Positions 7,452 through 47,190 of a DNA stretch of 64,000 nucleotides are shown here, in pieces (the stretch's first letter is position 1; each line of letters starts with the position of its first letter). Below the pieces are notes generated by a model. It did not search any database and was not told the origin of the DNA. It saw only the letters and a program-made list of their open reading frames with translations. The translations under genes were made by a program, and so were the position numbers. Source of the stretch: an uncultured Spirochaetia bacterium (GTDB lineage Bacteria > Desulfobacterota_D > UBA1144 > Nemesobacterales > UBA2774); contig CAZUDM010000003.1 of assembly GCA_964618635.1 (NCBI GenBank), positions 2,673 to 66,672 of the forward strand. The letters are read 5' to 3'.

Positions 7452-8357
7452 ATGGACATACGAACCCCGGTACTCAAAGCCGCATACAGCCTCTTCCCTT
7501 TTTCGCTTAAAGGCGACGCCGATGTCGGCGATGCGCGGCCCGGATGCGAAGTCTCCTGCGTCATAAACTTCTACAAGAGAACGGACCTCCTCCGCGTCAT
7601 ACTCGCCTGCCTCTCCGAGCAGGACATGGGCCGCGAGAGATTCGAGGTGGTGCTCGTCGAGGACAGGGGCGGTACGCCGGAAGGAAAAGCGGCTGCGGAC
7701 GAATTCTCCAGCGCTCTCGATATAAAGTACCACACGCTCGAAGAGAACTTCGGCGTGATGGGTTATTCCCGGAACTACGGGCTTTCCAAAACGGGCGGCA
7801 GGTACGTGCTCTTTTTAGACGACGATACCGTCATACTCGACCGCGGGTTTTTATCGGCGCTCGTCCGCGAATTCGAAGAGGCGAAGGCCGACGCCATAAT
7901 GCCGCGCGGAAGCGCCAGCTATTCGATCATAGAAGGAAGGTACAGCTTCCACGACCCCTACTTCCCGACGAACCGCTGCATGGCGTACAGGAGAGAAACC
8001 CTCCGAGACCTCGGAGGCTTCGTCTCCGAGATCGTAGGCCAGGAAGACGTCGAGTTTGCCGTAAGGCTCGCAGCCTCGGGAAAGAACGCCCTAAGGTCGG
8101 AGAGGCTTTCGTACATGCACCCGCCCCTCGTTACGACGGGCACGGGAAAGGCGGCGGCGGTCGGCCTCTCGTTCGCGAAGCTGAGAGGGAGGTACCCCCT
8201 TCCCGTCTGGCTGATGCTCCTCGCGAACGGCTCCCGTTACCTTCCCCTTCTTGCCGTGCCCTTCAACACCAGGTGCAGAATGCAGGGGATGTTCAGCCTC
8301 GGATTTCTGAAAGGCGTCTGGTACTCGTTTACCGGAAGGAAAATAGACTATAATTAG
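7452..8357 (+). CDS. glycosyltransferase family 2
   Basis: 301 aa with the GT-A N-terminal pattern (VSCVINFYKRTDLL ... EVVLVEDRGG ... DDD). Confidence 0.7.
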   Translation: MDIRTPVLKAAYSLFPFSLKGDADVGDARPGCEVSCVINFYKRTDLLRVILACLSEQDMGRERFEVVLVEDRGGTPEGKAAADEFSSALDIKYHTLEENFGVMGYSRNYGLSKTGGRYVLFLDDDTVILDRGFLSALVREFEEAKADAIMPRGSASYSIIEGRYSFHDPYFPTNRCMAYRRETLRDLGGFVSEIVGQEDVEFAVRLAASGKNALRSERLSYMHPPLVTTGTGKAAAVGLSFAKLRGRYPLPVWLMLLANGSRYLPLLAVPFNTRCRMQGMFSLGFLKGVWYSFTGRKIDYN

Positions 8358-8371
8358 TATTCGCCCGGCCA

Positions 8372-9163
8372 GTGAAGGGCACTAATCACATGCTCAAGCG
8401 CATTCTACCCTATAAAGACCTCTTCCTCGTCTACGTCTGGCGCGAATTCAGCATCCGCTACCGCCAGTCGATCATAGGTGTCCTCTGGGCCATTATCCAG
8501 CCCCTCAGCATGATGCTCCTCTTCACCTTCGTTTTTACTTATATAATCAAAGTACAGGTATCGGACTCCCCGAGGGCGGTGTTCTTTTACGCGGGGCTCC
8601 TCCCGTGGACGTTCTTCGCGTCCTCGGCCAACTACTCCCTGACGAGCCTAACAGGGAACTACACGCTCATAACCAAGATATATTTCCCGCGCGAGATTCT
8701 GCCCCTCGCGGGCGTCGTGCTCGCCTTCGCGGACTATCTCATCGCGTCGGTCATATTCTTCATAATGCTCGCGGCCTACGGCATAGGGCTTACCGTTAAC
8801 GCACTCTGGATATTTCCGCTCCTTCTGCTTTTATTCGTTTTCACGGTCTCCGTCTGCCTTATCCTTTCGAGCCTTAACGTCTACTACCGCGACGTAAAGC
8901 TCGCGACGGGATTTTTTATACAGCTCCTCTTCTTCGCTTCACCTGTCATATACTCCATCGACAACCTCTCCCTCAAGCTGAAGCTGATACTGTTCCTCAA
9001 CCCCCTCACCTTCATAATCGAGAATATGAGAAGGTGCCTCGTAGAAGGCCGCGGCGTAGTGCTCTGGCAGTTCGTTCTCGTCGCCGCGATCGTGGCCGCG
9101 TTTTATTATCTTTCCTGCAGATTCTTTGTTAAGACCGAGAGGGATTTTGCCGATGTCATCTGA
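8372..9163 (+). CDS. wzm: ABC-2 type polysaccharide exporter permease (Wzm/KpsM/TagG family)
   Basis: 263 aa with six predicted TM segments. The N-terminal FSIRYRQSIIGVLWAIIQPL motif is characteristic of ABC-2 polysaccharide permeases. The start could be the GTG at 8372 or the ATG at 8390. Confidence 0.8.
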   Translation: MKGTNHMLKRILPYKDLFLVYVWREFSIRYRQSIIGVLWAIIQPLSMMLLFTFVFTYIIKVQVSDSPRAVFFYAGLLPWTFFASSANYSLTSLTGNYTLITKIYFPREILPLAGVVLAFADYLIASVIFFIMLAAYGIGLTVNALWIFPLLLLLFVFTVSVCLILSSLNVYYRDVKLATGFFIQLLFFASPVIYSIDNLSLKLKLILFLNPLTFIIENMRRCLVEGRGVVLWQFVLVAAIVAAFYYLSCRFFVKTERDFADVI

Positions 9164-9872
9164 CGCCATGATAAGGCTTTCAGACGTGTGGAAAAAATAC
9201 TCGACGAAGGACATCTTCCACAAATCGCTCCGCGAAGAGCTCTCCCAGACCTTCAGGAAAAAAGACGCCGGAGGGCTCGGCGAGAGCGAGTTCTGGGCGC
9301 TTAAGGGTATTGACATCGAGATCGCAAAGGGGGAATGCGTCGGGCTTTTCGGGCACAACGGAGCGGGGAAAACGACAATACTCAAGCTCATCGCGTCCGT
9401 GACGTACCCCAACCTCGGCACAGTGGAAGTGAACGGAAGGGTCGCACCTCTCATCTCCGTCGGGGCCGGATTTCATCCCGACCTCACTGGCAGGGAGAAC
9501 ATATACACGAACGGCACGATAATCGGCATGACTATAAAAGAGGTGAGGGAGAATATAGAAAAAATAATCGAGTTCTCCGACATCGAGAGAAAATTCCTCG
9601 ATATGCCGGTCAAGAAATATTCCGACGGTATGAGCGCCCGGCTCGGATTCTCGATCGCGGTTCACAGCAGCGCCGACATCATACTCATAGACGAAATACT
9701 GGCGGTCGGCGACGAGGCCTTTCAGGAAAAGTGCCTCTCGAAAATAAAGGAGCTCTCCTCCCACGGCAAGACCGTGCTCATAGTCTCCCACAACCGCACC
9801 CGAATGGAGGAGCTTACGGACAGGATAATATTCATAAGAAGCGGGGAGGTACTCGAATCTGACACTCCCTAA
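9153..9872 (+). CDS. wzt: polysaccharide ABC transporter ATP-binding protein (Wzt/KpsT/TagH family), short form without a C-terminal carbohydrate-binding domain
   Basis: Walker A GHNGAGKTT, signature YSDGMSARL, Walker B ILIDEILAVGDE. It overlaps the wzm stop. I chose the ATG at 9153, which is preceded by GAGAGGGA. Confidence 0.85.
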   Translation: MSSDAMIRLSDVWKKYSTKDIFHKSLREELSQTFRKKDAGGLGESEFWALKGIDIEIAKGECVGLFGHNGAGKTTILKLIASVTYPNLGTVEVNGRVAPLISVGAGFHPDLTGRENIYTNGTIIGMTIKEVRENIEKIIEFSDIERKFLDMPVKKYSDGMSARLGFSIAVHSSADIILIDEILAVGDEAFQEKCLSKIKELSSHGKTVLIVSHNRTRMEELTDRIIFIRSGEVLESDTP

Positions 9873-10767
9873 CTTTTTCATAGTAGGTGCGGCAAAGGCC
9901 GGCACGACGTCCCTTCACGACTACCTGAGCCGGCACCCGGATATATACCTGTCGAATCCAAAGGAACCCAAGTACCTGTCACTTACCGCCAACAAATTCC
10001 CTCACACCGGCCCGCGCGACAACGAAGTTGACGATGCAGTCATCAAAACATGGGAAGACTACACAGCCCTCTTTCGGGACGCGAAGAATGAAAAAATCGT
10101 AGGCGAGGCCTCGGCGGACTATCTTTATTTCCACGAGACGGTGATTCCGCTGATAAAGGAGATAAGCCCCGAGGCGAAAATATTAATCCTCCTCAGAAAC
10201 CCCGTGTACAGGGCCTTCTCGGCATACAGGCACATGCTGAGGGACGGGCGTGAAACCCTCTCTTTCGAAGAGGCCCTCAAAAGAGAACCCGAGAGAATGA
10301 ATGCGAACTATGAATTCATCTGGTACTACAAAGACGTCGGGTTTTACGAGCGCCAGGTTAGGGCTTACCTCTCCGCATTCGGAGAGGCTGGCGTTAAAGT
10401 GTGCCTTCAGGACGACCTCGACGAGAACCCCGCAGAAGTCGTGCGCGACGTCTTCGGATTCCTCGGCGTAGACGAGAACTTCACCCCCGATTTCAGCCGC
10501 AGGCTCAACCTCTCGTCCATACCCAAAAGCGAATCCCTCGAGTCCTTCCTGACGGATTACGAGCACCCGGTCAAAAGAATTCTCCGGCCGGTGCTCCTAT
10601 CCACAATAGGCAAAGAGAACACAGAGAGACTCGTAAATTATTTCAAGAAGAGAAACCGGCTCCGGATGAAATCTAAAACTCGAAAGTACCTCACCGAAAC
10701 CTACAGGGAAGACATCCTAAAGCTTGAGAAACTCATAAAACGCGACCTCTCGACGTGGCTGAAATAA
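9859..10767 (+). CDS. PAPS-dependent sulfotransferase. The start codon is uncertain because there is no in-frame ATG, GTG or TTG upstream of the conserved N-terminal motif
   Basis: The 5'-PSB motif FFIVGAAKAGTTSL, the KEPKYL motif and the 3'-PB motif LLRNPVYRAFSAYRH are all in one frame from 9874 onward. The frame is open from 9838 and the first canonical start is the GTG at 10141. A CTG at 9859 lies 9 nt after GGGGAGGT. See the finding on this junction. Confidence 0.7.
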   Translation: MTLPNFFIVGAAKAGTTSLHDYLSRHPDIYLSNPKEPKYLSLTANKFPHTGPRDNEVDDAVIKTWEDYTALFRDAKNEKIVGEASADYLYFHETVIPLIKEISPEAKILILLRNPVYRAFSAYRHMLRDGRETLSFEEALKREPERMNANYEFIWYYKDVGFYERQVRAYLSAFGEAGVKVCLQDDLDENPAEVVRDVFGFLGVDENFTPDFSRRLNLSSIPKSESLESFLTDYEHPVKRILRPVLLSTIGKENTERLVNYFKKRNRLRMKSKTRKYLTETYREDILKLEKLIKRDLSTWLK

Positions 10768-10783
10768 ATCGCGGCCCGTGAGT

Positions 10784-12211
10784 TTAGTCTTTAGCCCTGT
10801 ACCTGAAGGAAGCGATATAAAGAAAAGGACACGCCGCAAGCGCAAGAACCTCCCCGACAATCACCGAGACCGGTATCTTCCAGATCGAATACAGATTCTC
10901 CCGGCTTTCGTAGAGCGATTCCCTGCCGCGGTCCCAGTCCAGCACCCTTCGGCCCGCGTACGTAAACGGTGACCCCCGCTCGGGATCGGTGTTTATCACG
11001 ACGTCCGGTTGCTTCGCCATCAGGTTCAGGAAGACACGCGCGTGCTCGATCAAGATGCCCTTCCCCTTGTCGTCGTATCCGAGGACTTCGTCGGCGTCCA
11101 TCCACTCGAATAAATGCCGCCTGTAGTCCTGCATGATGAGGACGATCTTCGCCCCGGGCGCAGCGGCTCTCACGATCTTCAGAACATTCACGACGTCTTT
11201 ATCCGTTCCTGACGGCAGTATGGCGACAGTCTGCGCGGAAAGGCTCGTGACCGGCTTTCCCGTCGGTCTGTACGCAGTATCGCTCGCCGCCTCCCTGACC
11301 TCCCTCCTCTCTCCCCACCTCCCGGTCGCGAAGTCCCAAAGCGCCTGCATGCTCAGCTTTGCGAGCTTCCCGTACCCACTCAGGAACCTGTAGAGAGCAC
11401 CCTTCAACACCATGCGCAGCGTTCCGTATATGCACCTGAGTCTCGACAAAGGATCCCCGTATTTGCTCGCGGTGAGGAGCGGCCCCTTTATACCGTAATA
11501 CGCGTTTATCGCGGCGCTTCTCTTCTCCGTAAAGGCCGGATGACAGACGACAGCCCTCGGCACGGCGACGACCCTGTATCCCTTCCTTTTTATCAGAAGC
11601 CCATAGTCCATATCGTCCCAGAGGAAATAATATCTCTCGTCCATTCCGCCCGTCTTCCTGAACGCCTCAGCCCTCACGAGCGAAACTCCGGAGCCGTGAT
11701 AATCGACATCGATCACGTCGTCCCTTTCGAAATCGGGCTCGTTGCAGAAGAGCGGGAAGACCTTTCCCGCCGCGAGGTCTATCCGGGCTCCGGCCTCGAC
11801 TATGAGGCCCCTGTCAGCGCTGTTTAAAATCTTGGGGCCGGCTAGCCCTATCTTTTTGTCCAACTCCATAACGTCTACGAGACGAGACAAACTTTTGCTG
11901 TCCACTGTCAAATCGGAATCCAGCATCCAGACGTAATCGTATTCCCCCGAGGAGCCCGCGTATTCGAGCCCTGTGTTGAACCCGACAGTCGCCCCATAAT
12001 TTTTATCCTTTTTCAGAACCCGAACCTCGGGATACATTTCCGGAAGCCATCCGAGCCCGTCCGTCGAGCCGTTATCGACAACTATTACGTCGAAGCTCTT
12101 ATAGTCGAGCGCGTAGACTGAGCCGAGTAGCACCTTCAGATCGGCGCTCCGGTTATAGACCGGTATCACTATCGCCACCCTTGGCATGCTAACGTGGGAT
12201 TCTTTGCTCAT
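10784..12211 (-). CDS. glycosyltransferase family 2 with a long C-terminal extension and a terminal TM anchor (paralog B)
   Basis: 475 aa. The N-terminal GT-A domain has VAIVIPVYNR ... VIVVDNGSTD ... MLDSD. It is a paralog of the adjacent gene and has the same architecture. Confidence 0.75.
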   Translation of the reverse strand: MSKESHVSMPRVAIVIPVYNRSADLKVLLGSVYALDYKSFDVIVVDNGSTDGLGWLPEMYPEVRVLKKDKNYGATVGFNTGLEYAGSSGEYDYVWMLDSDLTVDSKSLSRLVDVMELDKKIGLAGPKILNSADRGLIVEAGARIDLAAGKVFPLFCNEPDFERDDVIDVDYHGSGVSLVRAEAFRKTGGMDERYYFLWDDMDYGLLIKRKGYRVVAVPRAVVCHPAFTEKRSAAINAYYGIKGPLLTASKYGDPLSRLRCIYGTLRMVLKGALYRFLSGYGKLAKLSMQALWDFATGRWGERREVREAASDTAYRPTGKPVTSLSAQTVAILPSGTDKDVVNVLKIVRAAAPGAKIVLIMQDYRRHLFEWMDADEVLGYDDKGKGILIEHARVFLNLMAKQPDVVINTDPERGSPFTYAGRRVLDWDRGRESLYESRENLYSIWKIPVSVIVGEVLALAACPFLYIASFRYRAKD

Positions 12212-13604
12212 CGCGATATCCGCGGGATTTCAGGAGAAGTAAAAGGGTCAGCGGAATTGCGGCCAGCTCCCCGGCGAAGGAGGCGAAAAAGACCTTCCAC
12301 AAATCGCGCCGCTTCCCCTTAAAGCGTATGGCTCCCCTTTCCTCGTCGTAGACGTAGTATTTTTTCGCGGCATAGCCGAAGGGCGAGTCCGCGTTCTTGC
12401 TGGGCATCACTGCCGCATCGAAATTCCCCGACAATATTCTGACGAAAGTTCCCGCATGCTCCAGCAGTATGTTCCTCTTCTTGTCATCATATATAATGAA
12501 ATCGTCTATCGGAAGGGCCTCGAAGAGGTTCTTCCTGTATTCCTGAATCAGAAGCGTCACAGAGCAGTCTCCAATTGTACGTCTCACCCCATCTACGCAG
12601 TCCTTTATCGCGGTCAGATTCCCGGTCGGGAGTATGACAACCCGTGCTTTCTCATCCAGCGGCGCGTCTTCACCGCCTCCGGCCGTGTTCTCCGCGGGGG
12701 GAGAATCAGCGTGCGCGTACTTCTTCCACCTGCTCCGAAAAAAATCCTCGAGCGAGCGATAAAGAAGACCGCCGAGATACTTATTCCCGGTGAGGTTGTG
12801 AAACAGTATCCCCTTGCACGAATAAGAGGCTATCCTGTGGAATATTTTTATCCTCTGCTTCAGGTCGGCGAATTTAGAGAAAGCCAGAAGCGCGTTCCGG
12901 TTGTTGTAATAATTGACTAGTATCCAATCCTTCTCGGTCGGGTGATACACGAGAGACCTCGTCACGCCGACAACCCTATATCCAGCCCTGTTAACACTCA
13001 GACTCAGATCAGTGTCGTCCCACCAGATGAAATACCTCTCGTCCATGAGACGGGTTTTCCGGAGGGCGTCCGTCCTCACCATCGCGGAGCACGCGGGGAC
13101 GCAGTCGACCTCGTACACCCCCTCTTTCACGTCCGCAAGCTCGTAATTCTCCATGAACGGCTTCACAATCCCCGTATTCCAGTCGATGTTGAGCCCGACC
13201 TCGACTATATGATCCCTGTCGTCGGGGTTGGCTATCATCGACCCCGCTATGCCGACGCCTGCATCCTTCTCCATCACGTTCACGAGCTCGATGAGCGTCG
13301 TGCCCGTAACCTCTGCGTCATTGTCGAGGAGCCAGATGTATTTGTAGATACCCTTCCCAAGTGCGCACCTCATTCCGGTATTGAATCCACCGGCGCCGCC
13401 AATATTGGCTTCATTGGCTATGAGATGGACGTCAGGGAACGAGCTCTTCAAAAGCTCGCGCGAGCCGTCCGTCGATGCGTTGTCCACCACTATGATATCG
13501 TGATTTTTGTACTCAATATCGCTTAAAGACCGGAGCAGCCTGGACAGGTATTCCTTCTTGTTCCAGTTGACTATGACGATTGCTACAAGCGGGAGGTCTT
13601 CCAT
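12189..13604 (-). CDS. glycosyltransferase family 2 with a long C-terminal extension and a terminal TM anchor (paralog A)
   Basis: 471 aa with VAIVIVNWN ... IIVVDNASTDGS ... LLDNDA. It is colinear with the downstream paralog. Confidence 0.75.
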   Translation of the reverse strand: MEDLPLVAIVIVNWNKKEYLSRLLRSLSDIEYKNHDIIVVDNASTDGSRELLKSSFPDVHLIANEANIGGAGGFNTGMRCALGKGIYKYIWLLDNDAEVTGTTLIELVNVMEKDAGVGIAGSMIANPDDRDHIVEVGLNIDWNTGIVKPFMENYELADVKEGVYEVDCVPACSAMVRTDALRKTRLMDERYFIWWDDTDLSLSVNRAGYRVVGVTRSLVYHPTEKDWILVNYYNNRNALLAFSKFADLKQRIKIFHRIASYSCKGILFHNLTGNKYLGGLLYRSLEDFFRSRWKKYAHADSPPAENTAGGGEDAPLDEKARVVILPTGNLTAIKDCVDGVRRTIGDCSVTLLIQEYRKNLFEALPIDDFIIYDDKKRNILLEHAGTFVRILSGNFDAAVMPSKNADSPFGYAAKKYYVYDEERGAIRFKGKRRDLWKVFFASFAGELAAIPLTLLLLLKSRGYRDEQRIPR

Positions 13605-13671
13605 GTTTATATTAAGAAACTGCCTGACAAGAGAATAAAGGAAAATTCCTTGGGCACGAAATACCGCCGGC

Positions 13672-14979
13672 TCACTTAAACGCCCCGCCGGCGAAGAAGC
13701 CGTCTTTTATGGACTCCGCTATCCCCTGGAACGTCCACCTGCCGTAGCGGCCGATCTGGTAGATGCCCCGCTTTTCGAGCTCCTTCATCGCCGTCTCCTT
13801 CCACCCGGACCCCGGCGCCGACCACGTATACGCGACGTCTATCCACGTCGGGTCCACCGTTTCGGCCCTGCCTATGAACCCCCACGACCTAAGCTCCTTC
13901 ACGACTGAATCGGCATACGCTGCTATCTCCTTGTCTCCCGGCTTTTTGCCGTTGGCGTACGCCTTCTCGACGTATATGCTGACGCGCTCCCTTTCTTTCC
14001 GGGATGATTTCGGCATGAACGAGGCGTCGACGTTGCTGTAAAACCCGACCCTGTGAAAACGCGACTCGCTGTCGGGAATATAGAGCCAGTGGTCGTCCGG
14101 GCACTTTTTCCCGCGCGTTGCCCCTATATTGAGAACGAGGACGGACGTATAGTCCGCCGGCTTCTCATCGAGGCGTACGCCCGCTATCTCTGTGGCCTTG
14201 TTTAACGGTAGCGTGGAGACCAGGTTCTCGTATTTAGCCCCGGAGCCGTCGGAGAACAGGACCTCTTTTTTGTCGGCCTTTATCCTCGCGACGCGCTTCC
14301 CGTAATTCACGTCGCACCTTTCGGCCATCTTCCGCGAAAGCGAGTTGAGCCCGTTCTTTGGGTAGATATATGTCACGTTGTATCCGACGGCGGGCGGCGA
14401 CTTGTCTATCGCACCCTTTACTGCGATAGAGAGATTCACGGGCGATTTATAGGAATCCTGGGGCGCTATCTTCGTCCAGAGCCCTGCCGTGTAAAGGTCG
14501 TGGAAAGGTGCGAAGAACATCTCCGTCAAAGTCCTTCCGAAGCTCGTTTCGAGCCAGTCGGCCATCGTCCGCGGCGTGCCCGAAGGGGCGTTTATTATCT
14601 CGCTTATCGCCTTCGCGGCTATGTCCTTCCCGAGATAGCCGAGGTTATTCTGAATTGGATACGGGACGTATAGCCCAATCTTGCTGAAAAATACCGAGGA
14701 TTTTCTCTTGTAGGATTTCACGGGGCCGAGGGATTCGATAAACCTCAGCACGACTGAATCGCCGCCGAATATCCAGTGCCCGCCGCCTATCTCGAACCTG
14801 TACGCCTCGCCATCCTCCGGCGCTTCGAATAGACGCCTGCCGCTCCCCGGCGCGAGGTAATACGACGAGCATATGCCCCCCGGCACGCTCTCGGCCTCGT
14901 ACACCGGAAGGCCCGAAGCGATCCCCGCGGCAAGCCCGGTAACGCCCCCACCTATGATGAGATTTCCTGACTTTCCCAT
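13672..14979 (-). CDS. FAD-dependent oxidoreductase, UDP-galactopyranose-mutase-like (long eukaryotic-type GLF family)
   Basis: N-terminal GGGVTGLAAG, a Rossmann FAD motif. Blocks resemble long-form UGMs: YPIQNNLGYL, RFHRVGFYSNVD, GRYGRWTFQGIAESI. Confidence 0.6.
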   Translation of the reverse strand: MGKSGNLIIGGGVTGLAAGIASGLPVYEAESVPGGICSSYYLAPGSGRRLFEAPEDGEAYRFEIGGGHWIFGGDSVVLRFIESLGPVKSYKRKSSVFFSKIGLYVPYPIQNNLGYLGKDIAAKAISEIINAPSGTPRTMADWLETSFGRTLTEMFFAPFHDLYTAGLWTKIAPQDSYKSPVNLSIAVKGAIDKSPPAVGYNVTYIYPKNGLNSLSRKMAERCDVNYGKRVARIKADKKEVLFSDGSGAKYENLVSTLPLNKATEIAGVRLDEKPADYTSVLVLNIGATRGKKCPDDHWLYIPDSESRFHRVGFYSNVDASFMPKSSRKERERVSIYVEKAYANGKKPGDKEIAAYADSVVKELRSWGFIGRAETVDPTWIDVAYTWSAPGSGWKETAMKELEKRGIYQIGRYGRWTFQGIAESIKDGFFAGGAFK

Positions 14980-15056
14980 TTCAGCACCGCTCCAACGACA
15001 TGATGCAACTATGTTTACTTCCTTTAGAGCGCCGCGTCAACAAACACTCCGTGCCG

Positions 15057-17027
15057 TCAAATTGTCGCAAGTATGTTTCCCCACTTATCGACTTCGCACC
15101 TGAATCCCGGCGCGACATACAGCGTGGACGTATCCTCGAAGACTATCGCCGGGCCCCGGAACCTGAACCCGGGATAAAAATCCTCCCTCACGTAAGCCAT
15201 TGCCTTCGTCTCCCGTCCGTCGATTATCACGCTTTCTCTCGAAGCCCGGACGGTCTTTTTACCGGCATCGAGCAGAGGGAGCGCAAGCTTTTTCTTCCTC
15301 CGTATCGCTCTTAATCTGAGCGTTACGACCTCCACCTCGTCCCCCGGCATCGAGTATCCGTAGAGCTGCTTATGGGTCTCGTTGAAGCGCCTTACGAAAT
15401 TCTTTCCGTAAGGAATCGTGATTTCGTGGGCCTGCCTCTTGTAGCGCGCATCCACGTATCTTTCGTATCTCACACCGTCTTTCCCGAAATCGGCGCTCGA
15501 TTTTTTTACGAGCGCTTCGAATCCACGCTCTATCTCGCCTGCTGCCGTCTTGCCAGCCGACGCGAACACTGTAGCGCTATAGTCCTTGAACGTATCCGCC
15601 ATCAGCATCCCGAGTGCCGACAGCACGCCCGGCTCCCTCGGGAATATGACTGTCTTTATCTCCATCCCCCGCGCGAGCTCGCAGGCGTGAAGGCCGCCTG
15701 CCCCGCCGAAAGAGAGGAGAGCGAATTCGCGAGGATCGTATCCCTTGCCTATGGATATCACCCTGAGAGCCCTCTCCATGTTCGAATTGGCGACCCTGAT
15801 TATTCCCTCGGCGAGCTCCTCGACGGTGACGCCGAGCTTTCGGGAGAGCTTCCCGAGAGCCGAGACCGACTTCTCCGGGTATATCTTCATCCGTCCCCCG
15901 AGGAACCTTTCCGGGTCGATTCTCCTGAGGGTGACGTTCGCGTCCGTAACCGTCGGCACGGTTCCCCTTCCGTAACACGCAGGCCCCGGATCGGCCCCTG
16001 CGCTCTCGGGGCCGACTTTGAGCGCTCCGCCCGTGTCTATATATGCTATGGAACCGCCGCCCGCTCCTATGGTCGTCACGTCTATCATCGGCACCTTGAG
16101 CGGTATGCCGTCTATATTCGTCTCCGTCGTGAATTTCGGCCCGCCGTCGCAGAGGGCGACGTCCGTCGACGTGCCGCCCATGTCGTATGTGAGCACCTTC
16201 TCGTAACCGGCCGCGCTCGCTACGGCGTACGCACCGACGACACCGCCGGCAGGCCCCGAGAGGACTATGCGCACAGGTTCGCTCCCTGCTTCATCAGGAG
16301 ATATGACGCCCCCGCTCGACTGCATTATCGCTATCCGGTCGCCTCCTCCGTTCCGGGACGAAATATTCTCCGAAAGCGATCTCATGTACGAGCATACCTT
16401 CGGGACGAGATAGGAATTCGCTACGACGGTGGAAGTCCTCTCGTACTCCCTGAACTCGGGAAGAATTCTGGATGAGACCGATACGGGCACGCCGAGCGGT
16501 TCGAGAAAAGCAGCGACCTTCTCTTCGTTTACAGGATTTTTGTAGGAATGTAAAAAGGAAATCGCGACGCCCTCGGGCTTCAGTTTTTTGAGCCGCCCGA
16601 GGACTCTTTTCAAATCGGCGGCGGCTACCTTCCTGAGCACATTCCCTTCGAACGACACCCTCTCCGGGACCCCGAGCCGCATGTCCCTTGCGACCAGAGG
16701 ACGCGGTGCCTCCCAGAAGATATCGTAGAGGCTCCCCCTGTTCTGTCTCCCTATTTCTATCACATCCTCGAAGCCCTCGGTCGTAACGAGCGCGACCCTG
16801 GCCCCTTTCCTTTCGAGAAGGGCGTTCGTGGCGACTGTCGTGCCGTGGACGATTTCGACGTCACGGAATTTGTCCCCGAGAACGTGCGCCAGTCCCGATA
16901 TTATCGATCTCGAAGGGTCGTTCGGGGTCGAGGGGATTTTATAGGAGTAAAGCCTCTTGCCGTCGTAGAAAACGAAGTCGGTGAACGTGCCCCCGGTGTC
17001 TATACCGGCCCGAATCATTCTCCGCAC
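15057..17027 (-). CDS. hydantoinase/oxoprolinase A-family ATPase (HyuA-like, ASKHA fold), orphan with no B subunit in the window
   Basis: 656 aa starting GIDTGGTFTDFV. The domain order is Hydant_A_N followed by Hydantoinase_A. Confidence 0.8.
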   Translation of the reverse strand: MRRMIRAGIDTGGTFTDFVFYDGKRLYSYKIPSTPNDPSRSIISGLAHVLGDKFRDVEIVHGTTVATNALLERKGARVALVTTEGFEDVIEIGRQNRGSLYDIFWEAPRPLVARDMRLGVPERVSFEGNVLRKVAAADLKRVLGRLKKLKPEGVAISFLHSYKNPVNEEKVAAFLEPLGVPVSVSSRILPEFREYERTSTVVANSYLVPKVCSYMRSLSENISSRNGGGDRIAIMQSSGGVISPDEAGSEPVRIVLSGPAGGVVGAYAVASAAGYEKVLTYDMGGTSTDVALCDGGPKFTTETNIDGIPLKVPMIDVTTIGAGGGSIAYIDTGGALKVGPESAGADPGPACYGRGTVPTVTDANVTLRRIDPERFLGGRMKIYPEKSVSALGKLSRKLGVTVEELAEGIIRVANSNMERALRVISIGKGYDPREFALLSFGGAGGLHACELARGMEIKTVIFPREPGVLSALGMLMADTFKDYSATVFASAGKTAAGEIERGFEALVKKSSADFGKDGVRYERYVDARYKRQAHEITIPYGKNFVRRFNETHKQLYGYSMPGDEVEVVTLRLRAIRRKKKLALPLLDAGKKTVRASRESVIIDGRETKAMAYVREDFYPGFRFRGPAIVFEDTSTLYVAPGFRCEVDKWGNILATI

Positions 17028-20211: not shown

Positions 20212-21681
20212 TCACTTTCGCTTTTTTCTCAGCCTGAATAAATCCAGCCTGTGATAGCGGCTCTCGGATATGAAATCGTATTCCGGTGTAAGACCGGCTT
20301 TCGTATTCAGCCTGCTCGCGGGATGGGCCTGCATGACGAGCCATACGTCGTGCGTCAGCATGCCCGGATAAGACGGGAACCTGTCCTTTACCGGGACGAG
20401 CTCGAGGTCGCCCCTTTCGAGATAATATCCCGCCGTGACGGCCTCGAAGTGCGGAAAAACGAGGACGTAATCTCCGCTTCCGGCATTCGACTCTATCTCC
20501 CTTATGGCTTCCCGCCACTGGTTTTTCTCGACTCCGCCATAATACGAATAAAGAGGCGGCGCGGAGAGAATCACGACGGCGGCCATCACGGCGCAGGCTG
20601 CAAACCTGTTATTGACGGCGCTCATTCCTGCGGCGGCCAGGAGATATAGCCCGAGGGAAGCGATTATCGTATACCGGAACACAATAACCGGGGCGAGAAT
20701 AAGGGAAATTAAAAACGGCGCCAGGAGCGGAACCAGAAGCCAGAGGAGAAGAAAATAAATCTTCTCCCCGTAAGTGATCTTAACCCCCGCGGATTCGTCC
20801 GCCGCGGTGAGGAGCCCCTTAAAGCCCTTCACGCCTCGGAGCCTTTCCGAATTCGCGACTGCAAGCATGGCGAATGCCGCGAGCAGCGCGAGCACGTAAA
20901 CAGAGCCTGCATATATGACGAGATAGAGGAGCAAATCCCCCGATCCCGGCTCGGGTATCCAGAACGACTCCCTTACAGACGTGAACCTTCCCGCGAGGAG
21001 AATAAACCCGGGGACGTAAAGAGCTCCCAATACAACCTGAACGAGTATCCAGCGCGTAAGCTCGGGCGCGCCGGCGCGGCCCCGCCTGAAGAATATTGTG
21101 AAGCAAAATATATTCTGTGCCAGAACAGTGAACAGGCCGAAATAATGCGTATAACAGAGAAGGGCGCTCGACAGGACGTAAACAGCCGCCCAGCGCCTGC
21201 TCCACACCGAAATCATCCGAAGGAGCGCATAACCCGAGACGAGCGCCAGGAAAACCATCAGGGTGTATCCCCTCGCTTCCTGTGAGTACCTCACGTGAAA
21301 GAAAGAGACGGCGATTACAAGCGCCGCGAAGAGACCGGCTCTTTTACCGAAAAGAATCCTGCCGACGGAATACGTGAGAATAATCGAAAGGACGCCAAAT
21401 ATCGCCGAGGGCAGCCTCGATACAAATTCCGAATCCCCGAAGACGGGTATCCACAGATGGAGCAGCATGTAATAAAACGGGGGATTCCCTTCCTTACTCT
21501 GATTGGCTACCCATTTTATCTGCTCTATAAACCCGAGCCTGGATACGTCGATAGATACCGCTTCGTCGAACCAGACGCTCTCGCCGCCGAGGTCGTATAT
21601 CCTGAGCGCGAGCCCGGCAAGCACGATGAGAAGAAGGAGATAATTCTCTTTCAGAGTGTCGAGGAGCCTTCCTTCGGTCAT
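20212..21681 (-). CDS. GT-C glycosyltransferase, PMT_2 / ArnT-like (GT39/GT83), paralog 1
   Basis: A polytopic membrane protein. The first loop has LRIYDL...SVWFDEA with the catalytic DE, typical of PMT_2. A soluble periplasmic domain of about 130 aa is at the C-terminus. Confidence 0.8.
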   Translation of the reverse strand: MTEGRLLDTLKENYLLLLIVLAGLALRIYDLGGESVWFDEAVSIDVSRLGFIEQIKWVANQSKEGNPPFYYMLLHLWIPVFGDSEFVSRLPSAIFGVLSIILTYSVGRILFGKRAGLFAALVIAVSFFHVRYSQEARGYTLMVFLALVSGYALLRMISVWSRRWAAVYVLSSALLCYTHYFGLFTVLAQNIFCFTIFFRRGRAGAPELTRWILVQVVLGALYVPGFILLAGRFTSVRESFWIPEPGSGDLLLYLVIYAGSVYVLALLAAFAMLAVANSERLRGVKGFKGLLTAADESAGVKITYGEKIYFLLLWLLVPLLAPFLISLILAPVIVFRYTIIASLGLYLLAAAGMSAVNNRFAACAVMAAVVILSAPPLYSYYGGVEKNQWREAIREIESNAGSGDYVLVFPHFEAVTAGYYLERGDLELVPVKDRFPSYPGMLTHDVWLVMQAHPASRLNTKAGLTPEYDFISESRYHRLDLFRLRKKRK

Positions 21682-21706
21682 CTTACGCTTGCGCCGCGGA
21701 GTATGT

Positions 21707-22603
21707 TCAGCTGCCGTAGCCGAAATCCCTTATGAGGTTTTCCCTGTCGGTCCAGTTCTCGCTCACCTTCACCCATAGCTCTAAAAAGACCTTCGAGCCG
21801 AGGACCCTCTCTATATCCGCCCTCGCCTGGCTCCCTATCTCCTTCAGCATTTCACCGCCCTTCCCGATGATAATCCCCTTGTGGTTACTCCTCTCGACGT
21901 ATATCACGGCGGAAATGCGTATAAGCTGTTTTTCGGGAACCTCTTCGAACTCCTCTATCGAAACCGCGATTTTATAGGGTATCTCCTGGTGCGTGAGGTT
22001 GAATATCTTCTCCCTTATGAACTCCGCCGCGAGGAACCTCTCCGGCTGGTCCGTAATCATGTCGTCGGGGAAATACTTCGGCCCCGGCGGCAGGTGGTTT
22101 CTTATGGCCGCCAGGAGCTCCGGAATCCCGTCGGCCATGGCGGCGGAAATGGGGATGATTTCGAGAAATTTGTCCTGGTACTTCCGCGACTGGTCTATTA
22201 TTTTCAGAATTTCGCCCTTTTTTATCTTGTCGATTTTATTTATGAGAAGTATCGCCGGTTTCGGCAGGCTCTCGATTATGAAGGTGTCTCCCTTCCCGAA
22301 GGGCTCGTTCACCTCGACCACCATCAGTATCACGTCGGCTTCCCTGACGGCGGACATAGCCGCCTGGACCATCACCTTTCCGAGCTTCCCCCTCGCCTTG
22401 TGTATGCCGGGCGTATCGAGGAATATGAGCTGGGCGTCGGGCAGGTTTCTTATGCCCAGAATCCTGTTCCGCGTGGTGTTCGGCTTGTCGGAGACGGCGG
22501 CGATCTTCTCGCCGACGACGGCGTTCACGAGCGTCGACTTCCCGACGTTCGGCCTTCCGACAACCGATATGAATCCCGAGCGGAAATCCTTTTCCTCATT
22601 CAT
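21707..22603 (-). CDS. era: GTPase Era
   Basis: G1 GRPNVGKST, G3 DTPG, G4 NKID. A C-terminal KH domain follows (IIGKGGEMLKEIG). Confidence 0.9.
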   Translation of the reverse strand: MNEEKDFRSGFISVVGRPNVGKSTLVNAVVGEKIAAVSDKPNTTRNRILGIRNLPDAQLIFLDTPGIHKARGKLGKVMVQAAMSAVREADVILMVVEVNEPFGKGDTFIIESLPKPAILLINKIDKIKKGEILKIIDQSRKYQDKFLEIIPISAAMADGIPELLAAIRNHLPPGPKYFPDDMITDQPERFLAAEFIREKIFNLTHQEIPYKIAVSIEEFEEVPEKQLIRISAVIYVERSNHKGIIIGKGGEMLKEIGSQARADIERVLGSKVFLELWVKVSENWTDRENLIRDFGYGS

Positions 22604-22657
22604 GACAATGCTTCCTTTTTGTTATTAAATGCTGTCGTTAACTATCCGGCGCTCCGG

Positions 22658-24151
22658 CTACTCCGCTTTCGCCCTGAATTTATAGACGTGGAGCCCCTTG
22701 TATTCCGTTTCCGATACGTAATCGAACCGGGACGCCATCTTGAGCTTCATTATATTCTTCTCGAGTCCCCTGTGTTCCGATACGACGAGCCAGACGTTAT
22801 TGTCGCCGATGCCGGTATAGGTGAAGAGATCCTCCGAGAACTGCCCTAGCCTGAGGTCGTCCCTCTTTAAATAATAGGCCGCCGGCTCCACTTCGAATTT
22901 AGGATAGGTCACCACGAAATCTCCCTGCCCTGCCTCTTCCTGTATGTACCTCGCGGCCTCGCGCCAATCGTACTTTTCCGTCTCAACATAGTATCTCTTA
23001 AGGCCGGGAAAGGAAAGTCCCGCAATGAGAGCGACCACGAGCACTATGGCGATATTCATCCTGAGGCCGCTGATTCCGCGCGCCGTCAGGATGTAAAACG
23101 CCGGGGCCGCCGCTATCGTGTACCTGTAGATGAGCACCGGCGACGATACGTTGGAGACTATAAAAGGTATGAACACGACGGCGAAAATCCATGCCAGGAG
23201 AAGATATATCCTGCTCCCGTATGAAATCCCGGGTCCTTCCGGATTATAATCCTCCCGGCCGTAAAACCGCTCCGGTATCTTCATGCGTTTTATAAAATCC
23301 GGGCCGGCAACGGCTAGGAGTGTAAAAAATAAGAAGACGCACAGGAGAAAGGCCGTGCCCGCATAGAGCGTAAAGTAGCCGAGTATGTCCCGAAACCCCG
23401 GCTCCGTTATCCAGAACCCCTTCTGTATGGCGGCCGTGTTTCTGGCCAGTAGAAAAGAGCACGGCAGGAAGAGAACGACTATCGACACCTGAAGAAGAAG
23501 CCACTTTAAAAGCCCGAGTGCCCCCACCCTCCTCTTCCATGCGAGCTCCGTGAAAAACCATATATTCTGCGCAAGCACCACGAGTATGCCGTAGTAGTGT
23601 GAATACACGAGGCATACGCTCGAAATAACGTAGGCGGGCGCGTATATCCGGTTCCTCGACATGGTCAGCCGCAGGAGAAAGTAAAAGGACAGGAGCGCCG
23701 TGAAGGCCATAAGGCTGTAAGCCCTCGCTTCCTGTGAGAACATGATATTGAAAATGGAAACGGCCAGAATAGATGCCGCGACGAGGCCCGTTTTTTTATC
23801 GAAGAGGAGCTTCCCGAGGGCGTATATTACGATTATGGAAAGCGCGCCGAATATGGCGGACAGCATCCTCACGGAGGCCTCGGAGTCGCCGAAAACGGGA
23901 ATCCACAAATGGAGGAGCGTGTAATAAAGCGGCGGGTTGTTGTCGTCTACTTCGGCGATCCAGCGGAGGTGCTCCACGAATCCGAGCTTCGCCACGGCGA
24001 CTGATATGGCCTCGTCGTACCATATGCTCTCGGCGCCTATATTATAGATCCGGAGCGCAAACCCTGCGATGAAAATCAGGAAGATTAGATAGTTATCCCG
24101 GATGAAAGCCGATGCAGGCGAATTTCTTACAGCCGTCTCTATTTTCGTCAT
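22658..24151 (-). CDS. GT-C glycosyltransferase, PMT_2 / ArnT-like, paralog 2
   Basis: LRIYNIGAESIWYDEA. The layout is the same as paralogs 1 and 3. I chose the start MTKIETAV at 24151 by alignment with paralog 1. The track ORF extends to 24232. Confidence 0.8.
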   Translation of the reverse strand: MTKIETAVRNSPASAFIRDNYLIFLIFIAGFALRIYNIGAESIWYDEAISVAVAKLGFVEHLRWIAEVDDNNPPLYYTLLHLWIPVFGDSEASVRMLSAIFGALSIIVIYALGKLLFDKKTGLVAASILAVSIFNIMFSQEARAYSLMAFTALLSFYFLLRLTMSRNRIYAPAYVISSVCLVYSHYYGILVVLAQNIWFFTELAWKRRVGALGLLKWLLLQVSIVVLFLPCSFLLARNTAAIQKGFWITEPGFRDILGYFTLYAGTAFLLCVFLFFTLLAVAGPDFIKRMKIPERFYGREDYNPEGPGISYGSRIYLLLAWIFAVVFIPFIVSNVSSPVLIYRYTIAAAPAFYILTARGISGLRMNIAIVLVVALIAGLSFPGLKRYYVETEKYDWREAARYIQEEAGQGDFVVTYPKFEVEPAAYYLKRDDLRLGQFSEDLFTYTGIGDNNVWLVVSEHRGLEKNIMKLKMASRFDYVSETEYKGLHVYKFRAKAE

Positions 24152-24268
24152 GGGTCCGAATCGGGCCTGTTTGCCCGGAATCTTTACCATGATACTTACC
24201 GGCACCGGCAATTTCCATCGCTGGATCGGCACGGCGATAAAACAGGAGCGTAAATATGGGACTTAGCT

Positions 24269-25783
24269 CTATTCCGGCAAGCCTTCCAGCCGGTAGATTT
24301 TAATCTTTCTGAACTCCTTTTCCTGGAGGAGACGGTTTTCCGGAGGAAGGTGCTCCCTTTCGATCATGTCTCCGTGATAGGATGATATTATCCATATATC
24401 CCCCGGGCCGTGTAACGGATTGAGCCCGGATCTGTTATTTAGGGTGGTCACTTTCAACTTCTCCTTTCCGAAGTAATAGTTTGCTGATTCTATTTCATGT
24501 TTCGGGTAAATAATGACCAGGTCTCCGTCACGGGCATTCGCCTCTACATACCGTGCCGCCCCCCGCCACTCGTGCTTTTCGGGATTCCCGTAATAATGAT
24601 GAACGCTCACGACCGAAAGAGCTAGAACGAGCGCGGCCACGAATAACTTCGCTTCTCTTCGGCGAATGTTGTCAATTCCTTTGGCTGCGAGCAGATAAAG
24701 AGCGATAGAAGCCGGAATGGCGTACTTCGTCTGGTAGAGCGGTTTATAAAAAATCGATAAAACGACAGGCAAGACAATAGGAACGAGTATCAGGAGGGAC
24801 AACAAATAGACCCTTTCTATATTCGACATGCTAAGTCCCGTCGAATACCCCCTCACAGAGGTGAGCAATTCTCGGAAACCAGCGCCACGTTTCAGCTCAC
24901 GTGCATTGATTATCGACCAGAGGCACAAAAGAAAAAAGAGAATGAATAGCGGCCATGAACCCGAGAACTCGAGCAGAGAACCCGCAATCATGTTCAGGTT
25001 CGGCTTCGGTATCCAGAAATCTCCCGTCAATGCGCTCGATCCCATAAGTAAATAGATCTGCGGTAGAACGGAGCCGACGAGTATCAATTGCATCACGATC
25101 CACTTTCGCAGCGGGGGAACCGAAGGCCGCGGACCTATAACGAGCCTGGTCAGATAGTAGGCGTTCTGAGCTACGATTATCAGCACGCCGTAAAAGTGCG
25201 TATAAAGCAGGATAATGCCCGACAATAGATACCCGAGGGAGCCCCGAAAGCTGCACCTCTCCATCAGCCTGATAAAAAAGTAATAGGACAGGAGCGCCAG
25301 AAAAACCATCGGTATATACGACCTCGCCTCCTGCGAATAATAGATTTGATAGGATGACGTGGCCAGTATGAGTGCAGCGAGAAGTCCCACTGTCCTGTTG
25401 AACATCGTTTTACCGATGAGATATATGAGAGGTATGCACAGGGAGCCGGTAAGAGCCGAAAGGAGCCTCAGCGAAAATTCGGAATATCCCAGGATGGACG
25501 TCCACAGGTGAAGAATCCAGTAATATACCGGCGGGTGATTTTCGGACTCTGCAACAATGGCCTTCACTATTCCGATGAGTCCCAGACGGGACATCTTGTA
25601 AGAATAGGCTTCGTCGAACCACAGGCTTTGTGAATCGAGATTATATATACGGAGCGTCACTCCCAGGAGAAGTATGAGCAGAATGAAAACGTTTTCTTTC
25701 AGAAACCTGAGCAATGTCGGCAGTCCAATCCAGAAAAAACATTTAATATATCTAGCAATATAATTATATATGCCATTCAACAC
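24269..25783 (-). CDS. GT-C glycosyltransferase, PMT_2 / ArnT-like, paralog 3
   Basis: LRIYNLDSQSLWFDEA. The TM layout and C-terminal domain are the same as the other two. Confidence 0.8.
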   Translation of the reverse strand: MLNGIYNYIARYIKCFFWIGLPTLLRFLKENVFILLILLLGVTLRIYNLDSQSLWFDEAYSYKMSRLGLIGIVKAIVAESENHPPVYYWILHLWTSILGYSEFSLRLLSALTGSLCIPLIYLIGKTMFNRTVGLLAALILATSSYQIYYSQEARSYIPMVFLALLSYYFFIRLMERCSFRGSLGYLLSGIILLYTHFYGVLIIVAQNAYYLTRLVIGPRPSVPPLRKWIVMQLILVGSVLPQIYLLMGSSALTGDFWIPKPNLNMIAGSLLEFSGSWPLFILFFLLCLWSIINARELKRGAGFRELLTSVRGYSTGLSMSNIERVYLLSLLILVPIVLPVVLSIFYKPLYQTKYAIPASIALYLLAAKGIDNIRRREAKLFVAALVLALSVVSVHHYYGNPEKHEWRGAARYVEANARDGDLVIIYPKHEIESANYYFGKEKLKVTTLNNRSGLNPLHGPGDIWIISSYHGDMIEREHLPPENRLLQEKEFRKIKIYRLEGLPE

Positions 25784-28756: not shown

Positions 28757-30127
28757 CTACAGCCTCTTTCTCTTCCACCATATAGCTATACCGGAAAAGA
28801 ATATAACAGCCGGAATCATAATTACAGTGAAAAAGAATATTACGTTCGTCTGCTTGTTCGTGATTGCGAGTTTCCCCACCTTTCCGGCCTTCGGCCTTAT
28901 GGAGATGAGGTTCTCGTCCCCCGAAACCCAGTTCACGGTATTCAGGAAGAGGTCCCTGTTGCCGGAAAAGTCTATGAAGATATTTGATACGAAGTCGACG
29001 CTCCCGAAGACCGCGACCCTGGATTGGTTGTTGCCGTTCTCGACTACCGCCGCAACTCCGAGCGGCCCCGCCGCGTCCCCCTCTTCCTGCTGGGCGACGC
29101 CCTGGTCGAAGAGCTCGAAATTCGTCTCAGACCAGCTGTACTGCCCCGTATGCGCGAGGATGTCCGTGCCGAGCCCGTCGGCCTCGGCGGCCGCTATGCT
29201 CCGGGAATAAGGGAATATGGTCGCGAACCTGAATCCCTCTGTTATGTCGTGGTGGGCGTACTGCGCGACTATCGGCGCTATGTCGCCCCCGCCTTCGAGC
29301 TTCGAGCTCGGATCGACGATAATGTCGTCCCTGATATCGAACCCGTATCCTTTAAGGAGCGAGGCTATCTCCGAGCCCGACCTCGGCTCTATAAGGAATA
29401 TGGCCTTCCCGCCGCCGTCGAGATAGCTTTTCAGCATGCTTATCTCCTTTAAGGAAAAGGACTGCTTGGGCGCCGCCACGAGAAGAACGGAATTGTCCCC
29501 GGGGATGCCGTCCCCGCGGAGGAGCATGAACTCGTTCACCTTATAGCCTTCGTCTTCGAGGGCCTTCCTCAATACCCCTAGTCCTTCCGGCTCTATGTCG
29601 TCGTTGACGTCGCGCTCGCCGTGGCCCGTCATGAAATAGACTGTCTTGTTGACCTTCCTGTTGAGCTTGAATATGGCGTTCGTTATGTCTTCCTCCGAGC
29701 TTTTCAGTATGCCGCCCGAGAGGTGGTCCGTGAGCCTCAGCTTAATGGTCTGCTCGCCGTCGGCCAGGACTACGGTGCCGTATTCTTTTATGTCGTACTT
29801 CTTGGCTACGCCGGGCTCCTTGTCGGGATTCACGTACCTCACCTTTATCTTTCCCGACCGCCTCGTGTATTCCTTTATGAGGTCCTGGAACTCTCCCTTG
29901 TCGAGCCCGACATCCTTGAAAAACGCTATTATCTCTATATCTCCGTCAATATTGTCTATGACGGCGGTCGTATGCTCGGAAACCGTATAGAGCTTCGAAT
30001 CCGTCATGTCGATCCTGATGTCGGTTTTGAAGAAGATGTAATTCACGAGCACGAGTATTCCGCAGACGCTCAATATAGAGACGAGCGCGTTCGTTCCGTA
30101 GATGAGCCGCCTTCTCTTCATCTCCAC
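28757..30127 (-). CDS. GldG-family ABC transporter auxiliary protein
   Basis: 456 aa with an N-terminal TM, a large periplasmic domain and a C-terminal TM (IFFFTVIMIPAVIFF). This is GldG-like and overlaps the upstream permease gene. Confidence 0.7.
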   Translation of the reverse strand: MEMKRRRLIYGTNALVSILSVCGILVLVNYIFFKTDIRIDMTDSKLYTVSEHTTAVIDNIDGDIEIIAFFKDVGLDKGEFQDLIKEYTRRSGKIKVRYVNPDKEPGVAKKYDIKEYGTVVLADGEQTIKLRLTDHLSGGILKSSEEDITNAIFKLNRKVNKTVYFMTGHGERDVNDDIEPEGLGVLRKALEDEGYKVNEFMLLRGDGIPGDNSVLLVAAPKQSFSLKEISMLKSYLDGGGKAIFLIEPRSGSEIASLLKGYGFDIRDDIIVDPSSKLEGGGDIAPIVAQYAHHDITEGFRFATIFPYSRSIAAAEADGLGTDILAHTGQYSWSETNFELFDQGVAQQEEGDAAGPLGVAAVVENGNNQSRVAVFGSVDFVSNIFIDFSGNRDLFLNTVNWVSGDENLISIRPKAGKVGKLAITNKQTNVIFFFTVIMIPAVIFFSGIAIWWKRKRL

Positions 30128-31797: not shown

Positions 31798-32286
31798 ACA
31801 GGTCAAAATCCCGGGCCCCGAGCCAGCCTCGAAGGGCACACGCTTCTTGGAGACTATAGAATAACCGCCGCCGAAACCTATTCCAAACGCAAATTCCGCC
31901 CGCCGTCGCCGCCCCCGGGAAGCAATCGCGCCGCCGGACGAAGGAGATTTTTAAAAACCGGCATTCCCGGGCTTCTACTTCCGAAAGACCAGTATATACT
32001 TTAGATAACGGCGGAGATGGCTACGCCTCGGGCTTTTCAAAGGGCGTTGGAACAAGAGGCAAAAGGGCACGATATTCCGGTTTCCCTATCCTTAGCGGCG
32101 GGGGATAGCCAAGTGTTCTGCGCTCGGGCGTCCAAAGTCAACACAAAAGCTTAAAATCGCTGTAAATTCAGGCGCGGCTAGATTGCGGCATTTATATTAA
32201 TATGCTAATATACTATCCGAAATTTCATGTTATAAAGCCAATCCCCGTTTAGAAACAAAACACTATTTGATTGAGTAGGGAAATAT

Positions 32287-35100: not shown

Positions 35101-35118
35101 AAAACTGGAGAAAAAGAC

Positions 35119-41440: not shown

Positions 41441-41603
41441 GACGAGGCTAATAAATTTACAATATTCCGTCTGGTATTCAAGTAATCGAACGCAAAAAAT
41501 GAACGCCGGGTTAATATTCGCCAGGAGAGCCGCCTTATCGGCCGTCCCCACTGAATAACGATGCTTTTTTCGAATATAATTCTCGGAGGGAGTATCAAAT
41601 CCA

Positions 41604-46560: not shown

Positions 46561-46577
46561 GTCTTATTATCCTCCGA

Positions 46578-47183: not shown

Positions 47184-47190
47184 TTCTCAG

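Follow-up and report, generated by a model that had tools for sequence, protein, structure and literature searches.

How does a gene come to be translated when no canonical start codon precedes its indispensable N-terminal domain? This question is raised by a sulfotransferase gene in a 64,000-nucleotide stretch of DNA (hereafter, the window) from an uncultured bacterium (GenBank assembly GCA_964618635.1, contig CAZUDM010000003.1, positions 2,673 to 66,672 of the forward strand). The gene overlaps, in another reading frame, the 3' end of wzt, which codes for the ATPase of an ABC transporter. We consider it likely that the gene encodes a functional protein of 302 amino acids whose translation would start at a CUG codon (positions 9859-9861 of the window). 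From sequence comparison we infer that the CUG is used, and initiation at this codon directed by a Shine-Dalgarno (SD) sequence is the best-supported reading of the locus.

The sulfotransferase frame lies at +1 relative to wzt, which runs from an ATG at 9153 to a TAA at 9870-9872. A stop codon at 9835-9837 bounds it upstream, and it stays open from 9838 to the TAA at 10765-10767. Translated from 9838 it reads EAGRYSNLTLPNFFIVGAAKAGTTSL, where the Asn codon (9871-9873) overlaps the wzt stop. The first in-frame ATG, GTG or TTG is the GTG at 10141, preceded by 101 codons that include no canonical start. A preliminary description of this DNA, made from the letters alone, had reported both the open frame from 9838 and the lack of a canonical start before 10141, and both were confirmed in the sequence. 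Among 55 rough gene models of the window, the sulfotransferase alone combines such a long start-less lead with an apparent intergenic gap, here of 268 nt. No sign of relaxed start-codon choice in general was seen among the same 55 models. The elements of the junction are the following.

9153..9872, + strand: wzt, ABC transporter ATPase gene, 239 amino acids (Pfam ABC_tran, E = 6e-18)
9843..9850, + strand: SD sequence GGGGAGGT, inside the wzt coding sequence (invariant in 10 of 10 haplotypes, 8-nt spacer)
9859..9861, + strand: CTG (CUG) codon proposed as the sulfotransferase start (clade conservation, alignment with outgroup starts)
9859..9872, + strand: overlap between the wzt 3' end and the sulfotransferase 5' end, 14 nt, CTGACACTCCCTAA (sequence, variation within the overlap)
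9859..10767, + strand: full sulfotransferase open reading frame (ORF) as proposed, 302 amino acids, TAA at 10765-10767 (Pfam, PDB 3RNL, 302-amino-acid orthologs)
10141..10143, + strand: first canonical in-frame start, GTG (used by public gene calls; 208-amino-acid product P0004)

The junction was compared between the window and loci L001-L019. L001-L003 are separately assembled runs (ERR2586215, ERR2586216 and ERR2586217), each with a 208-amino-acid call starting at the GTG (P0004), and their junction is identical to that of the window. L004-L018 are DNA loci of the eight closest relatives listed, and L019 is a GTDB species-representative metagenome-assembled genome (MAG) labelled Candidatus Dadabacteria bacterium. 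At least 15 assemblies and unrelated samples are represented, with 10 different haplotypes of the junction in all, and the nine haplotypes other than that of the window, all from Candidatus Dadabacteria, share its wzt/sulfotransferase architecture. A scan of metagenome contigs found no further members of this clade. In every haplotype, AGCGGGGAGGT is followed by five variable bases and then by AATCTGAC-N-CT-S-CCTAAC. The SD sequence, the 8-nt spacing and the CTG are thus invariant in 10 of 10 haplotypes, and in none of them does an ATG, GTG or TTG occur between the upstream in-frame stop and the indispensable N-terminal domain, which carries the loop that binds the cofactor 3'-phosphoadenosine-5'-phosphosulfate (PAPS). 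Depending on the lineage, a canonical start codon is first met in frame at codon 7, 22, 68, 80 or 94. The GTG at 10141 is itself not conserved, and its product would be devoid of the PAPS 5'-phosphosulfate-binding (5'-PSB) loop. Stops in the sulfotransferase frame narrow the interval further. A TAG stands directly before AAT-CTG in L015 and L016, and TGA-GCG precedes AAT-CTG in L017 and L018. Hence, a start common to the clade is confined to AAT-CTG-ACN-CTS-CCT. Within this interval CTG is the only conserved near-cognate codon, since the ACN codon is ACG in some haplotypes and ACA or ACT in others.

The pattern of substitutions points to translation in the sulfotransferase frame. Only two sites vary within the 14-nt overlap, 9864 (A, G or T) and 9867 (C, with G in L019). 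Both are third positions in the sulfotransferase frame (Thr and Leu codons), where the changes are synonymous, and first positions in the wzt frame, where they are non-synonymous (T/A/S and P/A). Codons 2-7 of the sulfotransferase have undergone synonymous changes, yet they encode TLPNFF throughout. In the part that lacks a canonical start (codons 5-94), the pairwise ratio of non-synonymous to synonymous divergence (dN/dS) is 0.04-0.13, at dS values of 0.2-1.5; for codons 95-302 it is 0.08-0.18, and the start-less codons are, if anything, under tighter constraint. Because dN/dS of codons 5-94 is low in all lineages, we conclude on these comparative grounds that the N-terminal third is translated in the sulfotransferase frame in all of them, over long divergence. 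The wzt gene carries a trace of the same arrangement. Other Dadabacteria Wzt proteins, with more than 90% identity over the nucleotide-binding domain, have 236-237 amino acids and end in ..SGEIYTT, ..QGNLVSNE or ..EGNIISNQ, and a 239-amino-acid Wzt ending in V-x-[EQ]-S-D-[TAS]-[PA] is found only in the lineages with the overlap. The last three to four wzt codons (S-D-T-P in the window) are therefore a tail specific to this clade, and the initiation region and first codons of the sulfotransferase appear to determine its sequence.

More distant relatives indicate where the start would be expected. The next-closest orthologs (about 59-64% identity) come from MAGs assigned to Thermodesulfobacteriota or named "delta proteobacterium" and from metagenomes, and most have 302 amino acids. 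Their N-terminus, M-K-L-P-N-F-F, aligns without gaps to L-T-L-P-N-F-F, so that these orthologs start at the position of the CTG. Of the 120 matches listed, 94 retain the PNFF-type motif, and the commonest arrangement among these, seen in 26, has the start three codons ahead of the P. The CTG-aligned codon is TTG in eight outgroup loci, seven of them distinct (L020, L031/32, L034, L045, L046, L047 and L051), and ATG in P0008, P0010, P0023 and others. L048 has an ATG two codons further upstream instead (MNTKLPNFF), and its sulfotransferase start overlaps the stop of the preceding GT2 glycosyltransferase gene (ATGAACACTAA). Thus, overlap with an upstream gene is not peculiar to the CTG clade; adjacency to wzt is. 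Many of the relatives with a TTG start are miscalled too, as the annotated P0025, P0030, P0037, P0038 and P0051-P0058 begin inside or after the 5'-PSB loop. Judging from these alignments, a weak start at the CTG-aligned position is frequent in the sulfotransferase family. CTG is one transition away from TTG, and it probably arose by a single T-to-C change from the TTG of the nearest relatives; it has been kept throughout the Candidatus Dadabacteria clade. Inspection of orthologous loci had been suggested in the preliminary description, which had leaned towards CTG initiation or tight coupling and away from a +1 slip. The outgroup TTG and ATG codons at the aligned position, together with the invariance of the CTG and the SD sequence in 10 haplotypes, lend support to that preference.

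The protein that would start at the CUG matches its family over the full length. Pfam Sulfotransfer_3 (PF13469) matches it with E = 3.6e-16 and 60.5 bits (cut-off 27) over profile positions 1-213 of 216, and Sulfotransfer_1 (PF00685) with E = 6.5e-9 and 36 bits (cut-off 22). Position 1 of the Sulfotransfer_3 profile aligns at the Pro codon at 9868, which places the beginning of the domain right after the CTG. PDB entry 3RNL matches at E = 9e-73, with an alignment from residue 3. Since the Pfam and 3RNL alignments begin at the Leu and Pro codons at 9865-9868, nothing appears to be missing at the N-terminus. Moreover, many orthologs have 302 amino acids at 100% coverage. Two cofactor-binding motifs could be located.

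9886..9912, + strand: 5'-PSB loop GAAKAGTTS (aligned to the PSB loops of 3RNL and of the heparan sulfate N-sulfotransferase 1NST)
10195..10221, + strand: 3'-phosphate-binding motif RNPVYRAFS (aligned to RNPVDRAFS in 3RNL and NPADRAYS in 1NST)

With a full-length match and both motifs in common with 3RNL and 1NST, the predicted product is a typical enzyme of the PAPS-dependent sulfotransferase fold.

How initiation might proceed is suggested by the layout of the junction. The SD sequence offers six nucleotides of Watson-Crick pairing to the canonical 3' end of the 16S rRNA and a G-rich extension, and it is separated from the CTG by 8 nt counted from GGAGGT, or 9 nt from GGAGG. A strong SD sequence before the CTG had already been pointed out, although at 9844-9851; we place GGGGAGGT at 9843-9850. 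It ranks among the strongest of about 53 gene starts in the window, most of which have little or no SD sequence. With start assignments that are crude, clear SD sequences of the GGAGG type are concentrated in a cytochrome oxidase operon (46249-49773, - strand) and at the CTG site of the sulfotransferase. In the transcript, GGGGAGGU (9843-9850) within the wzt coding sequence would position the ribosome with an 8-nt spacer, and the initiator tRNA would read the CUG as a near-cognate codon, yielding fMet-Thr-Leu-Pro-Asn-Phe-Phe. The predicted N-terminal peptide of the CUG-initiated protein would be (f)MTLPNFFIVGAAK, and TLPNFFIVGAAK would be a peptide within residues 2-90. The initiator tRNA is not among the RNA genes of the window, where ARAGORN and Rfam found only a gene for tRNA-Pro(CGG) (41364-41441, - strand).

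Judging from the geometry of the junction, initiation of the sulfotransferase is probably coupled to wzt translation, because the wzt stop comes 11 nt after the start codon, and the CUCCC at that stop can pair with the SD sequence. The wzt and sulfotransferase genes are co-directional with a short overlap (14 nt), and the 3' end of wzm, which precedes wzt, overlaps the wzt start likewise (11 nt). The additional features are given below.

8372..9163, + strand: wzm, ABC-2 permease gene (Pfam ABC2_membrane, E = 2.5e-18; ORF list)
9843..9870, + strand: possible hairpin that pairs the SD sequence (GGGGAGGU) with ACnCUCCCU, located at the wzt stop, and leaves the CUG in its loop (weak minimum free energy prediction)

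A ribosome terminating on wzt would either unfold the initiation site or re-initiate there, and the enzyme would then be made in a small, constant proportion to the transporter. The geometry fits both models of coupling, RNA unfolding and ribosome scanning with reinitiation (PMC12548453, PMC6728339). As to the hairpin, GGGGAG in the SD sequence can pair with CUCCC at 9865-9869, with minimum free energies of -9.4 to -14.3 kcal/mol in five haplotypes. The structure is predicted in all haplotypes; in several of them, A-C mismatches speak against its lower stem. A stricter version of coupling, which we hold only tentatively and regard as rather unlikely, is that initiation at the CUG is all but confined to ribosomes fresh from termination at the wzt stop, 11 nt downstream. 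Under such obligate termination-reinitiation, the hairpin between the SD sequence and CUCCC would close the site on free mRNA, and the strong SD sequence would pull the post-termination ribosome back onto the CUG. If true, obligate termination-reinitiation would sustain a non-canonical start over long evolution and hard-wire a low enzyme-to-transporter ratio.

Several observations weigh against initiation at the CUG or reduce what the junction can tell about it. All CTG haplotypes belong to one clade, and their conservation therefore reflects a single origin. In the window as a whole, GGAGG-N6-10-CTG occurs 10 times against 12 expected, so there is no enrichment; the motif being at chance frequency, the evidence lies in its position and conservation and not in the motif itself. 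The hairpin does not stand out statistically, its z-scores against shuffled sequences being only -0.8 to -2.7, and it shows no covariation. Synonymous variation is reduced at the wzt 3' end (4 of 14 sites variable in the last 20 codons, compared with 49% overall), but other wzt stretches are as quiet, and this signal is suggestive only. Finally, bacterial initiation complexes discriminate against CUG (PMC11497404). On the supporting side, CUG does sustain initiation in E. coli reporters, at 1-2% of that from AUG (bioRxiv 10.1101/063800). In view of both, a low output of the sulfotransferase is to be expected.

Other explanations of the missing start codon have to be considered. Absence of a start codon is a common signature of assembly error and of pseudogenes, and it might be argued that a 1-nt assembly error conceals a normal start codon or an uninterrupted ORF, or that loss of the start codon has made a pseudogene. 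This account is scarcely credible, and it is effectively refuted already. The junction is the same in three separately assembled runs, and the architecture recurs in at least 15 assemblies from unrelated samples and in the GTDB representative MAG. The ORF is intact everywhere, with no stop but the terminal one, and although synonymous divergence has reached saturation, purifying selection on it is strong. The preliminary description had named two findings that would overturn its proposal, an assembly error and dispensability of the first 90 residues. The agreement of L001-L003 and many other samples disposes of the former, and the dN/dS of 0.04-0.13 disposes of the latter. Transcriptional slippage was considered and rejected for want of conservation in the A5 and T5 runs close to the junction. 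A further possibility is a start downstream of the CTG, either at a near-cognate AUA or AUC at 9880 or at the first canonical codon (GTG 10141), giving an N-terminally shortened sulfotransferase and leaving the frame ahead of that start untranslated. Public gene calls do use such starts: those of the eight closest relatives listed (P0001-P0006, P0017 and P0034; 83-86% identity) are all N-terminally truncated, with 208-295 amino acids, and L012 has an ATG at the codon equivalent to 9880. However, the position of these codons is not conserved (codon 7, 22, 68, 80 or 94), codons 2-7 (TLPNFF) keep their protein sequence through synonymous changes, and the first 90 codons show the low dN/dS given above. 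Moreover, a start at 10141 removes the PSB loop, a start at 9880 removes the first beta strand aligned with 3RNL and 1NST, and the conserved SD sequence would be at least 29 nt away. We regard a downstream start as most unlikely.

CCC followed by a stop codon is a +1-prone context, as in prfB-type sites and tRNA-Pro slippage. The preliminary description had singled out CCC-UAA-C at 9867-9873 as a slip site, and this sequence is indeed there. A programmed +1 frameshift, with tRNA-Pro slipping from CCC to CCU while the stop codon is in the A site, would produce a Wzt-sulfotransferase fusion with the junction ..ESDTP-NFFIVG.. and the diagnostic peptide SGEVLESDTPNFFIVGAAK. The window has CCC-TAA-C, as do 8 of the 9 remaining haplotypes, and the +1 frame is exactly that of the sulfotransferase. 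Nevertheless, the site is not conserved. The slip codon is GCC (GCC-TAA) in L019 and in the separate lineage of P0123, yet the sulfotransferase ORF of L019 is intact, and tRNA-Ala cannot re-pair on CCU. The Wzt of P0123 ends in ..EVRQSDSA and that of L019/P0246 in ..EVCQSDSA, both with a final Ala. In addition, the sulfotransferase-frame codons upstream of the slip site (ACN and CTS) change synonymously while the wzt frame changes its amino acids, and orthologs start independently at exactly the CTG-aligned codon. The SD sequence lies 16 nt from the CCC (counted from its last base, 9850, to the first of the CCC, 9867), compared with about 3 nt in prfB. No Wzt-sulfotransferase fusion was found among the 120 best sulfotransferase matches listed, none of which has PF00005, or among the 120 best Wzt matches listed, none of which exceeds 269 amino acids or has a sulfotransferase domain. 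By these comparisons, the junction lacks the defining features of a prfB-like frameshift site that were tested, namely a conserved slip codon, the SD distance and fused homologues, and we judge frameshifting very improbable. The earlier suggestion of a sulfotransferase physically coupled to the exporter ATPase finds no support either: no fusion appears among the matches listed, and in other lineages the sulfotransferase gene follows a GT2 or methyltransferase gene and not wzt.

SD-directed initiation at a near-cognate codon such as the CUG has precedents. Near-cognate, non-canonical starts are known from infC and pcnB of E. coli, both with AUU, and CTG is allowed in NCBI translation table 11. 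The sulfotransferase resembles genes of this type in having an essential N-terminal domain before any canonical start, a near-cognate codon, a good SD sequence and low expected expression. It differs in that the codon is CUG and lies inside the upstream gene, 11 nt before its stop, and in that it is kept across a whole uncultured clade, with TTG or ATG as its counterpart in relatives. Autoregulation of the infC type is not evident. Similarity to prfB-type +1 frameshifting extends to the slip-prone codon and stop in the window and to a +1 frame that enters a conserved ORF, whereas the unconserved slip codon, the wrong SD distance, the selection upstream of the slip site and the lack of fused homologues among the matches listed set the junction apart. 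With translationally coupled overlapping pairs (PMC6728339, PMC12548453), the junction shares co-directional genes, a short overlap, an SD sequence inside the upstream ORF and a possible inhibitory structure. Typical coupled overlaps are of 4 nt (ATGA) or 1 nt with canonical starts, whereas wzt and the sulfotransferase overlap by 14 nt with a CUG. We regard the proposed CUG start as a new, well-supported example, at the level of sequence, of a rare known phenomenon that would involve no new mechanism.

To our knowledge, very few natural CUG starts in bacteria are well supported, and the majority of those annotated are open to doubt. The comparative case presented here is unusually clean, with ATG, TTG or CTG at the same codon position in successive relatives, an interval bounded by stops, and purifying selection. 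There is also a consequence for annotation. Standard gene callers allow only ATG, GTG and TTG, and the sulfotransferase is truncated by them in every genome of the clade and in many TTG-start relatives. Since the truncated calls lack the cofactor-binding loop, an automated pipeline would wrongly take the gene to be partial or inactive. The junction (SD sequence, 8 nt, CUG, 11 nt, stop) would constitute a compact natural test case for reinitiation and for an SD strength that offsets a poor start codon.

The genes around the junction form a glycan-assembly cluster. A GT2 glycosyltransferase gene (7452-8357) lies upstream of wzm, and a protein with ABC_tran and a permease with ABC2_membrane inside a glycosyltransferase cluster identify wzm and wzt as a Wzm/Wzt glycan exporter. 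In agreement with this, JGI names Wzt homologues 'homopolymeric O-antigen transport system ATP-binding protein'; the NCBI names of Wzt cluster members are Candidatus Dadabacteria or Thermodesulfobacteriota. A C-terminal carbohydrate-binding module (CBM) occurs only in the subclass of Wzt that recognises capped chains. In the 239-amino-acid Wzt of the window, Pfam detected the ABC_tran nucleotide-binding domain alone and no CBM, as had been noted from the sequence before, and the protein belongs to the CBM-less subclass.

The cluster (7452-17027 in the window; L045-L051) is kept across phyla in rearranged form. Its members are GT2 glycosyltransferase genes, wzm and wzt, the sulfotransferase gene, a second sulfotransferase-like gene or a methyltransferase gene, and genes of the amine-oxidase and hydantoinase/oxoprolinase families. 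A setting with GT2 glycosyltransferases and a Wzm/Wzt exporter is in keeping with a PAPS-dependent sulfotransferase, and the product of the cluster is possibly a sulfated glycoconjugate. Compared with sulfotransferases of the 3RNL and 1NST type, the cluster adds the amine-oxidase-like and hydantoinase/oxoprolinase-like genes.

Elsewhere in the window, a GldG-like gene (ABC_transp_aux; 28757-30682, - strand) also has an open frame, of 185 codons and devoid of canonical starts, upstream of its GTG at 30127. This lead overlaps, in another frame, an ABC-2 permease gene (30118-30870). It is probably open by chance, and the Pfam domains of the gene lie only after the GTG. An ORF of 1342 amino acids (32263-36291, - strand) has no Pfam match at E <= 1e-5. 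Three tandem genes for membrane glycosyltransferases of the PMT_2 family, similar to ArnT and dolichyl-phosphate-mannose transferases, occupy 20212-25783 on the - strand.

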